The notes beneath the pieces were generated by a model. That model was not told the DNA's origin and searched no databases. It was given only the letters and a program-made list of their open reading frames with translations. From positions 19,753 to 83,752 of the IMG/VR virus record IMGVR_UViG_3300049433_000139: 64,000 bases of DNA. One strand, given 5' to 3'. The stretch is from a virus. Every line of letters starts with the position of its first letter. Within the stretch, counting starts at the first letter, position 1. This document shows, piece by piece, positions 46,331 to 46,743 of the stretch. Position numbers and translations under genes: made by a program.

Positions 46331-46719
46331 TGGCTCGTGAAATTACCGAGCACGACATACAGCGAGCGCTAGTAATTTGGCTAGATGGCAGTCCCGACAG
46401 TGCGGGTAACCCTCGCACCACTCCCGCACTTCGTAAAGACGCTATGTGTTGGCACACGCCGAACGGCGGCGGTCGATCCGTAGTGGAGGGCGTTCGCTTT
46501 AAACAGGCCGGGGTTCGCGCTGGCATTCCTGATTTACTTTTTCTGCGCGACGGTAATGTTTTCGGCCTCGAACTGAAAAAACCCGGCGGCGTCCTTTCGC
46601 CCGCACAGCGCGAGATGCATCCCCGCCTACTCGCCGCCGGTATGGTGGCGTGTGCCACCGTAGACTCGCTGGAGGACGCTAAGCGGGTCGTGAAGGGATG
46701 GGGCTTAACTTTGTGTTGA
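46330..46719 (+). CDS. VRR-NUC domain nuclease
   Basis: EHDIQ, HTPNGG, GIPDL, ELK..GG.LS..Q motifs. Confidence 0.9.
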   Translation: MAREITEHDIQRALVIWLDGSPDSAGNPRTTPALRKDAMCWHTPNGGGRSVVEGVRFKQAGVRAGIPDLLFLRDGNVFGLELKKPGGVLSPAQREMHPRLLAAGMVACATVDSLEDAKRVVKGWGLTLC

Positions 46720-46743
46720 CTTACAACAAATTTGCAGTAAGTT
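46705..46743 (+). promoter_or_regulatory. Promoter of the ctrA-like operon with an overlapping CtrA-box-like site
   Basis: TTAA-CTTTGTG-TTGAC (1 mismatch to TTAA-N7-TTAAC) overlapping TTGACT-N16-TAAGTT. Confidence 0.72.

Follow-up and report, generated by a model that had tools for sequence, protein, structure and literature searches.

A putative CtrA operator merged with the core promoter of a prophage-borne ctrA gene

A prophage that carries its own ctrA gene raises the question of what controls this gene, and whether CtrA itself, of phage or of host origin, could take part in the control. We addressed this question in a stretch of 64,000 nucleotides (hereafter the window), which represents bases 19753-83752 of the 83,752-bp virus record IMGVR_UViG_3300049433_000139 (record G000). 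The sequence TTAA CTTTGTG TTGAC, one mismatch from the CtrA consensus TTAA-N7-TTAAC, lies at 46705-46720 on the plus strand, upstream of the phage ctrA gene. According to the original prediction, CtrA-box-like sites overlap the -35 elements of this and other phage promoters, phosphorylated host CtrA (CtrA~P) could trigger the phage ctrA operon, and the phage protein would then lock a positive feedback loop across a whole regulon. The sequences quoted in it, at ctrA and at nine other sites, are all present, the coordinates on the minus strand being approximate. We examined them by counting mismatches to the consensus and by comparison with shuffles, slid registers and dyads of matched composition. 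The box at ctrA is retained here as a probable operator, for which repression seems the likelier sign, and the phage-wide CtrA regulon is left without support.

The box at the phage ctrA promoter

The box TTAA-N7-TTGA (46705..46719, plus strand) consists of two TTAA-type half-sites 7 nt apart with one mismatch between them, and agrees with the consensus at 7 of 8 core letters, or at 8 of 9 if the trailing C is counted. Its 3' half coincides with the opening TTGA of the -35 hexamer TTGACT (46716..46721, plus strand) of the ctrA-operon promoter, which is one of 20 copies of a promoter found along the phage. The predicted -10 element TAAGTT (46738..46743, plus strand) follows 16 nt after the -35 hexamer. 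It was not listed by a simple sigma-70 scan, as only 3 of its 6 letters match TATAAT; the arrangement TTGACT-16 nt-TAAGTT nevertheless has the 16-18 nt between hexamers and the co-oriented gene of a sigma-70-type promoter. On these elements the box is predicted to span about -46 to -32 and to end about 30 nt before the start site. It is encoded in the last codons, GGC TTA ACT TTG TGT TGA, of an endonuclease-like gene (46327..46719, plus strand; PHROG endonuclease and Holliday-junction-resolvase families), whose stop codon lies inside TTGAC. Two rare codons write the box: TTA is the rarest Leu codon of the phage (53 of 1341, 4.0%) and ACT its rarest Thr codon (14%).

The recurrence of near-consensus boxes in diverged phage ctrA promoters is the reason for which the box at 46705 is read as a CtrA-type operator. 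We compared 21 viral ctrA loci, namely the window, 19 near-full-length CtrA matches selected from 78 loci, and locus L007; L193 (partial match), L197 (record shared with L007) and L200-L256 (DNA-binding domain only) were excluded from the 78. The 400 nt upstream of these 21 genes contain six boxes with at most one mismatch to TTAA-N7-TTAA, against 0.86 in dinucleotide shuffles, and none of 300 shuffles reached six. With the window left out, five boxes remain against 0.74, and again none of 300 shuffles reached this number. As a positive control we used 55 cellular ctrA upstream regions, drawn from 80 metagenome loci in a scan that returned almost only cellular ctrA. They gave 60 boxes against 9.1 in shuffles, mostly of the one-mismatch type, including GTAA-N7-TTAAC/G (8) and TTCA-N7-TTAAC (3). 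The six phage boxes all fall within the promoter. The spacing matters as well, since six boxes were found at N7, three at N6 and none at N8, and TTAA-N7-TTAA ranks first among 36 composition-matched dyads.

A recognisable TTGAC promoter is present in 11 of the 21 loci; where there were two TTGAC sequences (L184, L192, L007 and L196), the one nearer ctrA with a plausible -10 element was chosen. TTAA-N7-TTGAC stands in the same register in three of them, the window, L181 (record G002) and L192 (record G006), with differing spacers and flanks. In L192, as in the window, TTAA is spelled by the closing codons of the upstream gene, with TTA for Leu. Of these 11 phage ctrA promoters, 3 thus have exact TTAA at N7 from TTGAC; the 29 other offsets tested gave none. 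The probability that at least 2 of the 10 relatives have it there, given local base composition, is 0.001. TTAA-N7-TTGAC occurs once per record in G000, G002 and G006 (68-84 kb), always at the ctrA promoter, and none of them contains the pattern in its reversed form, which served as control. Boxes with at most one mismatch are few in the entire related records (one in G002, two in G005, three in G001, six in G006 and eight in G007, against 8-28 for the composition-matched control based on AATT), and in four of these five records, G002, G005, G006 and G007, one of them lies at the ctrA promoter.

Other phages carry the motif further downstream in the promoter. In L007 and L195, GTAA-N7-TTAA starts 22 and 21 nt after the T of TTGACA, which corresponds to about -13/-14, and its first half-site is merged with the -10 element. 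In L184 the same dyad directly follows the -35 element, at about -29, and TTAAC half-sites are found in L179, L180 and L184 at about -8, -2 and -3. Phage ctrA promoters repeatedly carry a dyad of the CtrA type, and do so at specific positions. By these counts, the comparison with related phages lifts the box at ctrA above chance, and the resemblance to CtrA boxes that had been proposed for it holds at this promoter. We consider it rather probable that the box at 46705-46719 is a real CtrA operator fused to a core promoter, to which binding is predicted.

The protein encoded downstream bears on which regulator could use such a site. The phage ctrA gene (46921..47748, plus strand) encodes 275 aa with Glu at the phosphoacceptor position, Pro at the acidic-pocket position 8 and a C-terminal tail of about 50 aa. 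The best NCBIfam model for its product is the CtrA equivalog, with 329.7 bits, just below the cut-off of 350. The receiver aligns to Brucella CtrA (4qpj), and the replacement of the phosphoacceptor Asp by Glu (D51E), already noted in the original prediction, is confirmed in the alignments. The set of receiver, OmpR-type winged helix and phosphoacceptor Asp that makes a phosphorylatable CtrA is thus broken at position 51, and position 8 is Pro. Judging from these residues, the product derives from CtrA but departs from the standard, phosphorylatable form. Phage-sized contigs encode many relatives, each about 275 aa long. Members of the phage-type clade (relatives P0002-P0024) have Glu or Ala at position 51 and Pro at position 8 in common, together with the conserved C-terminal tail of about 50 aa (SPSLAPE...PSIVP), which cellular CtrA lacks. 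Phage and cellular CtrAs do not differ in the recognition region (residues 183-200 and 212-218), so the phage protein should recognise the same DNA motif as host CtrA.

The first open reading frame (ORF) past the promoter (46778..46918, plus strand) encodes a hydrophobic protein of 46 aa, for which a family search gave no match; ctrA comes next, followed by three co-oriented ORFs of 171, 90 and 427 aa (47891..50226, plus strand) of no known function, which are candidate members of the same transcription unit. No terminator-like site was found on the plus strand between 46743 and 50226. A search for RNA runs covering 46300-48400 gave none. The promoter probably drives the small ORF and ctrA, and the three downstream ORFs are probably also in the unit. 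A small ORF of 44-50 aa lies between promoter and ctrA in three phages (the window, L181 and L195). The window (46906-46926) and L181 share the junction TGACCATGCG, made of the stop of the small ORF, two bases and the ctrA start, which suggests coupled translation of the small ORF and ctrA.

Operator or coincidence, activation or repression

Several observations weigh against the reading of the box as an operator, and some of them come from the phage genome itself. TTAA-N7-TTAAC with at most one mismatch is found 4 times in the window against 4.93 expected, and 4 times in the whole 83,752-bp record against 6.6; the record contains no perfect CtrA box, and TTAACCAT is absent from it. The single mismatch of the 46705 box, A to G, falls on a core position of the 3' half-site, and the geometry of the promoter rests on a start site predicted near 46750 from the -35 and -10 elements. 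Among the relatives, only 3 of 11 ctrA promoters have a box of the -35 type; the closest one, L179/L002, whose CtrA is 69% identical, has none, and carries just a TTAAC half-site after the -10 element. The relatives' promoters are richer in AT than that of the window, the TTGAC promoter was picked by eye in relatives with more than one, and the control dyad TTAA-N7-AATT reaches five matches, over a search space twice as large. The excess over chance is thus seen across phage ctrA promoters and not inside this genome.

These points would fit an explanation in which CtrA plays no role: TTAA would be a chance occurrence in an AT-rich stretch (-46 to -36), forming a UP-element-like extension of a strong constitutive promoter, and the matches in other phages would be coincidental. 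The chance-level counts of near-consensus boxes genome-wide and the composition-matched dyad with its five matches are in line with this. So is the build of the promoter family, in which positions -7 to -4 hold only A or T, T-Y-A stands at -11 to -9 (counted here from the first T of TTGAC) and the N3 register yields as many near-TTAA tetramers as N7. Coincidence does not easily account, however, for exact TTAA at N7 in 3 of 11 promoters and at none of the 29 other offsets tested, for a pattern whose single occurrence in each of three records is at ctrA, or for the failure of all 300 shuffles to reach the observed number of boxes. It also has to deal with the fact that TTAA is otherwise depleted in these genomes and is spelled here with rare codons. 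We regard an absence of any CtrA role as quite unlikely. The depletion in record G000 amounts to 115 TTAA against 287 AATT.

A circuit in which CtrA tunes the whole phage programme through weak sites in most or all of the 20 promoter copies, each combining T-Y-A-N at N7 with TTGAC, is a part of the original prediction that did not stand. In its favour, T is found at -11 in 14 of the 20 copies and A at -9 in 11, with T or C (10 and 8 copies) between them; the tetramer at N7 is at most one mismatch from TTAA in 8 of the 20; and TTAA recurs at +26, over the end of the -10 element, in three further copies. The fourth position of this supposed half-site shows no preference, however, and the supposed spacer is better conserved than the half-site, being A/T only at -7 to -4 and then cTG. 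The N3 register likewise gives 8 of 20, and TTAA matches the N7 column no better than TTAC or TCAG does. The nine other sites on the earlier list have 2-3 mismatches each, and sites with at most two mismatches number 83 against 92.7 expected in the whole record with the trailing C, and 132 against 142 without it. If the trailing C is omitted, boxes with at most one mismatch number 14 against 10.8 expected, scattered along the record. The four TCAA-N7-TTGAC copies were rejected as CtrA sites: they belong to a longer fixed-spacer motif, GTTCAATTAYGTGTTGA, which is also present at 26059 and 26399, away from any promoter. The phage-wide regulon was rejected on these grounds, and CtrA control of the whole programme appears highly improbable.

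CtrA-type boxes were not seen in the 19 other promoter copies, with one possible exception. The candidate second box, TTCA-N7-TTAAC (25980..25995, minus strand; one mismatch), lies over the spacer and -10 element of the promoter copy at 26010. Of all copies, this one stands closest to the ctrA promoter and is alone in sharing its unusual spacer TTACRACAAATT (inverted pair I5, 87%). The ctrA promoter and the 26010 copy hold two of the four TTAA-N7-TTAAC matches with at most one mismatch in the window. The genes downstream of the 26010 promoter have no known function.

If the box at 46705 is a real operator, the question becomes one of sign. In the mechanism that we propose, a CtrA protein would bind the box, be it the phage's own, host CtrA~P or both; either could do so because their DNA-binding domains are alike. 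Bound CtrA would set the level of the phage ctrA operon, by auto-regulation and/or control by host CtrA, and would cover the hexamer that sigma region 4 must read. We lean towards negative control, in which the operon would be held at a steady level by auto-repression, be shut off as long as host CtrA~P is high, or both. One reason is that the 3' half of the box is the -35 hexamer itself, whereas in the -39 geometry the half-sites flank the hexamer. Another is that all three phages keep TTGAC, which is optimal for sigma, and not TTAAC, which would be optimal for CtrA. The identical core promoter moreover occurs 19 times without the box, so that it is probably active without CtrA, and five other phage ctrA promoters carry motifs at positions that are repressing in Caulobacter. 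A weak operator over a strong promoter would have the look of a self-limiting circuit. Granted a real operator, repression is thus the more probable sign, and activation a serious though less probable one.

Activation could take the form of positive control limited to the ctrA promoter, with host CtrA~P activating first and the phosphorylation-independent phage CtrA keeping the promoter on, as at Caulobacter ctrA P2. That CtrA-activated promoters carry a site near -35, as the original prediction held, is in print: full CtrA motifs near -35 activate, and in activated promoters one near-consensus site lies at this position or close to it (PMC11264516, PMC4287350). A full motif is also located at -49 of podJ P1 (PMC4287350), and a box starting near -46 is compatible with activation in this respect. 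The predicted -10 elements are poor in G002 (CAAGTT) and G006 (TACACC), which would suit a need for an activator. All of this tells against our lean to repression. On the other side stands the geometry. The box would start at about -46, against -39 for ctrA P2 (PMC4287350), and would leave about 30 nt between its end and the start site, itself predicted, against 23-24 nt in CtrA-activated promoters (PMC6180460). Its 3' half coincides with the -35 hexamer, with a perfect TTGAC in all three phages; the core promoter recurs 19 more times without the box; and full or half motifs lie between -29 and about -2 in five other phage ctrA promoters. The positive feedback proposed earlier finds no support in this arrangement, and positive control of the ctrA promoter seems to us rather unlikely.

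Returning to repression, a wider reading may be tentatively considered. A lineage of temperate phages of Bradyrhizobium-like hosts might carry a phosphorylation-independent CtrA under a self-operator in the core promoter, found over the -35 element in some phages and over the -10 element or the start site in others. Host CtrA~P would also close the phage promoter, because host CtrA has the same DNA-binding helix. Synthesis of phage CtrA would then be largely confined to times of low host CtrA, and the protein would keep itself at a fixed dose. Such a small circuit, self-limiting and in anti-phase, would rewire the cell-cycle oscillator of the host and go beyond listening to it. We hold this scenario to be speculative, and less likely to be true than not to be.

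Relation to known CtrA-controlled promoters

In Caulobacter the position of a CtrA motif in the ctrA promoter region sets the sign of its effect. ctrA P2 is activated by a full motif at -39, P3 is repressed by the same motif at -14, and P1 is repressed by a half-site at -14 (PMC4287350, PMC11264516); half-motifs over the -10 element repress (PMC4287350, PMC6180460). The phage locus resembles this system in having CtrA motifs in a ctrA promoter, and the promoters of L007 and L195 have the -13/-14 geometry of P3. It differs in that the gene lies on a prophage, its product has no phosphoacceptor Asp, and a single promoter takes the place of a cascade of two or three; furthermore, a consensus -35 TTGAC supplies the 3' half-site and the box would start at about -46. 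The fliQ/ccrM-type promoters and the Rhodobacter fla2 promoters also have a 7-nt-spaced dyad overlapping the -35 element of a sigma-70-type promoter. Their dyads end 23-24 nt before the start or begin at about -39, unlike the phage box, which lies on a perfect -35 element about 30 nt before the predicted start.

Host CtrA~P is known to act on phages. Mascolo et al. (2022) describe its binding to clustered canonical boxes in phages of Alphaproteobacteria, where it represses genes of vB_BsubS-Delta and activates those of phiCbK and Cp1R7A-A1 (PMC9437464). These phages of lytic deferment share with the prophage the presence of CtrA boxes in promoter regions, but theirs are canonical TTAA-N7-TTAA sites, densely clustered within large regions that are intergenic or terminal repeats. 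The prophage has no perfect box, no overall enrichment and just one or two near-consensus boxes, and no local density of canonical boxes of the lytic-deferment kind was found in its 83,752-bp record. It also encodes the regulator itself, whereas in the accessible part of PMC9437464 the term 'CtrA homolog' is applied to bacterial proteins only. A literature search, from whose coverage subscription journals are mostly absent, found in print neither a phage carrying its own CtrA nor a CtrA operator fused to the promoter of a phage-borne ctrA.

CtrA autoregulation in cells and the control of phage promoters by host CtrA have thus both been described already. The site at 46705 would probably represent ctrA autoregulation moved to a prophage-borne ctrA that lacks the phosphoacceptor, with the operator fused to a hexamer of the core promoter. 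If the operator is real, a system of one promoter and two proteins would show how a prophage adds an always-active copy of a master regulator to the cell-cycle network of its host without killing the host, and whether the phage senses the host cycle via the same site.

The promoter family and the prophage

The promoter of the ctrA operon belongs to a family defined on the whole record, where 24 of 207 TTGAC pentamers score at least 16/28 against the repeat consensus and 20 were kept; those at record positions 1997, 15549, 38376 and 55607 were dropped, having neither the CAAA spacer nor a -10 element. The consensus of the 20 copies is tTyanWTWTcTG-TTGACT-TTTtGCAAATTtGgnG-TArGTT. TTGACT is invariant in all 20, as are the C and A of the spacer at +11/+12, which form TTTGCAAA / CAAATTTG palindromes (for example at 23933-23971), and all copies are co-oriented with the local ORFs. 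The conservation of the spacer suggests that a phage-specific factor reads it. Pfam and PHROG scans of 18 neighbouring ORFs, made in search of a spacer-reading repressor or regulator, returned only homing-endonuclease, arm-type DNA-binding, exonuclease and unknown families. Four of five related phage records lack the spacer motif TTGAC-N6-CAAA, and the family could not be extended to relatives.

The copies differ in the tetramer at N7. TTAG is found at 23933..23971 (-) and 40587..40625 (+), neither of which is a CtrA box by the tests run, TTAC at 35769..35807 (+), TCAC at 25983..26021 (-) and TCAG at 16138..16176 (-). TCAA is present at 17815..17853 (-) and 20098..20136 (-), in both as part of a longer motif GTTCAATTATGTGTTGAC, and at 21236..21274 (-). 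The remaining tetramers are TTCG at 3219..3257 (-), GCGC at 6964..7002 (-), GTAT at 24957..24995 (-), GCCC at 27068..27106 (-), CCGG at 35071..35109 (-), TTCC at 45616..45654 (+) and CACC at 50504..50542 (-), the last near the right end of the prophage. A promoter-like copy without a clear -10 element has TGCA (35677..35715, +).

The motif GTTCAATTAYGTGTTGA, 15-18 nt long with a fixed spacer, is present in six copies, at 17842, 20125, 21263 and 26229 (-, position of the T of TTGAC) and at 26059-26082 and 26399-26422 (+). Three copies lie just 5' of promoter copies; the other three flank a homing-endonuclease-like gene (26342-27061) and are not followed by the promoter spacer. GTTCAATTAYGTGTTGA may be an operator for some other protein or a homing-endonuclease target. 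The prophage has two such genes of the GIY-YIG/NUMOD3 type, the one just mentioned and one at 45635-46330, which is directly 5' of the endonuclease-like gene preceding ctrA.

ARAGORN found no tRNA gene in window positions 1-64000, and a blastn search of positions 44000-50000 against deposited phages gave no close relative. At the right end, a protein of 1060 aa (60231-63410) shares 93-94% identity with proteins encoded in Bradyrhizobium genomes, and the ORFs between about 50.6 kb and 60231 contain PAS/GAF, CHAT and lactate/malate dehydrogenase domains. From about 50.6 kb onwards the window is host DNA on this evidence, and the element is a prophage with a Bradyrhizobium flank. The right boundary of the prophage falls somewhere between 50.2 and 51.1 kb of the window.

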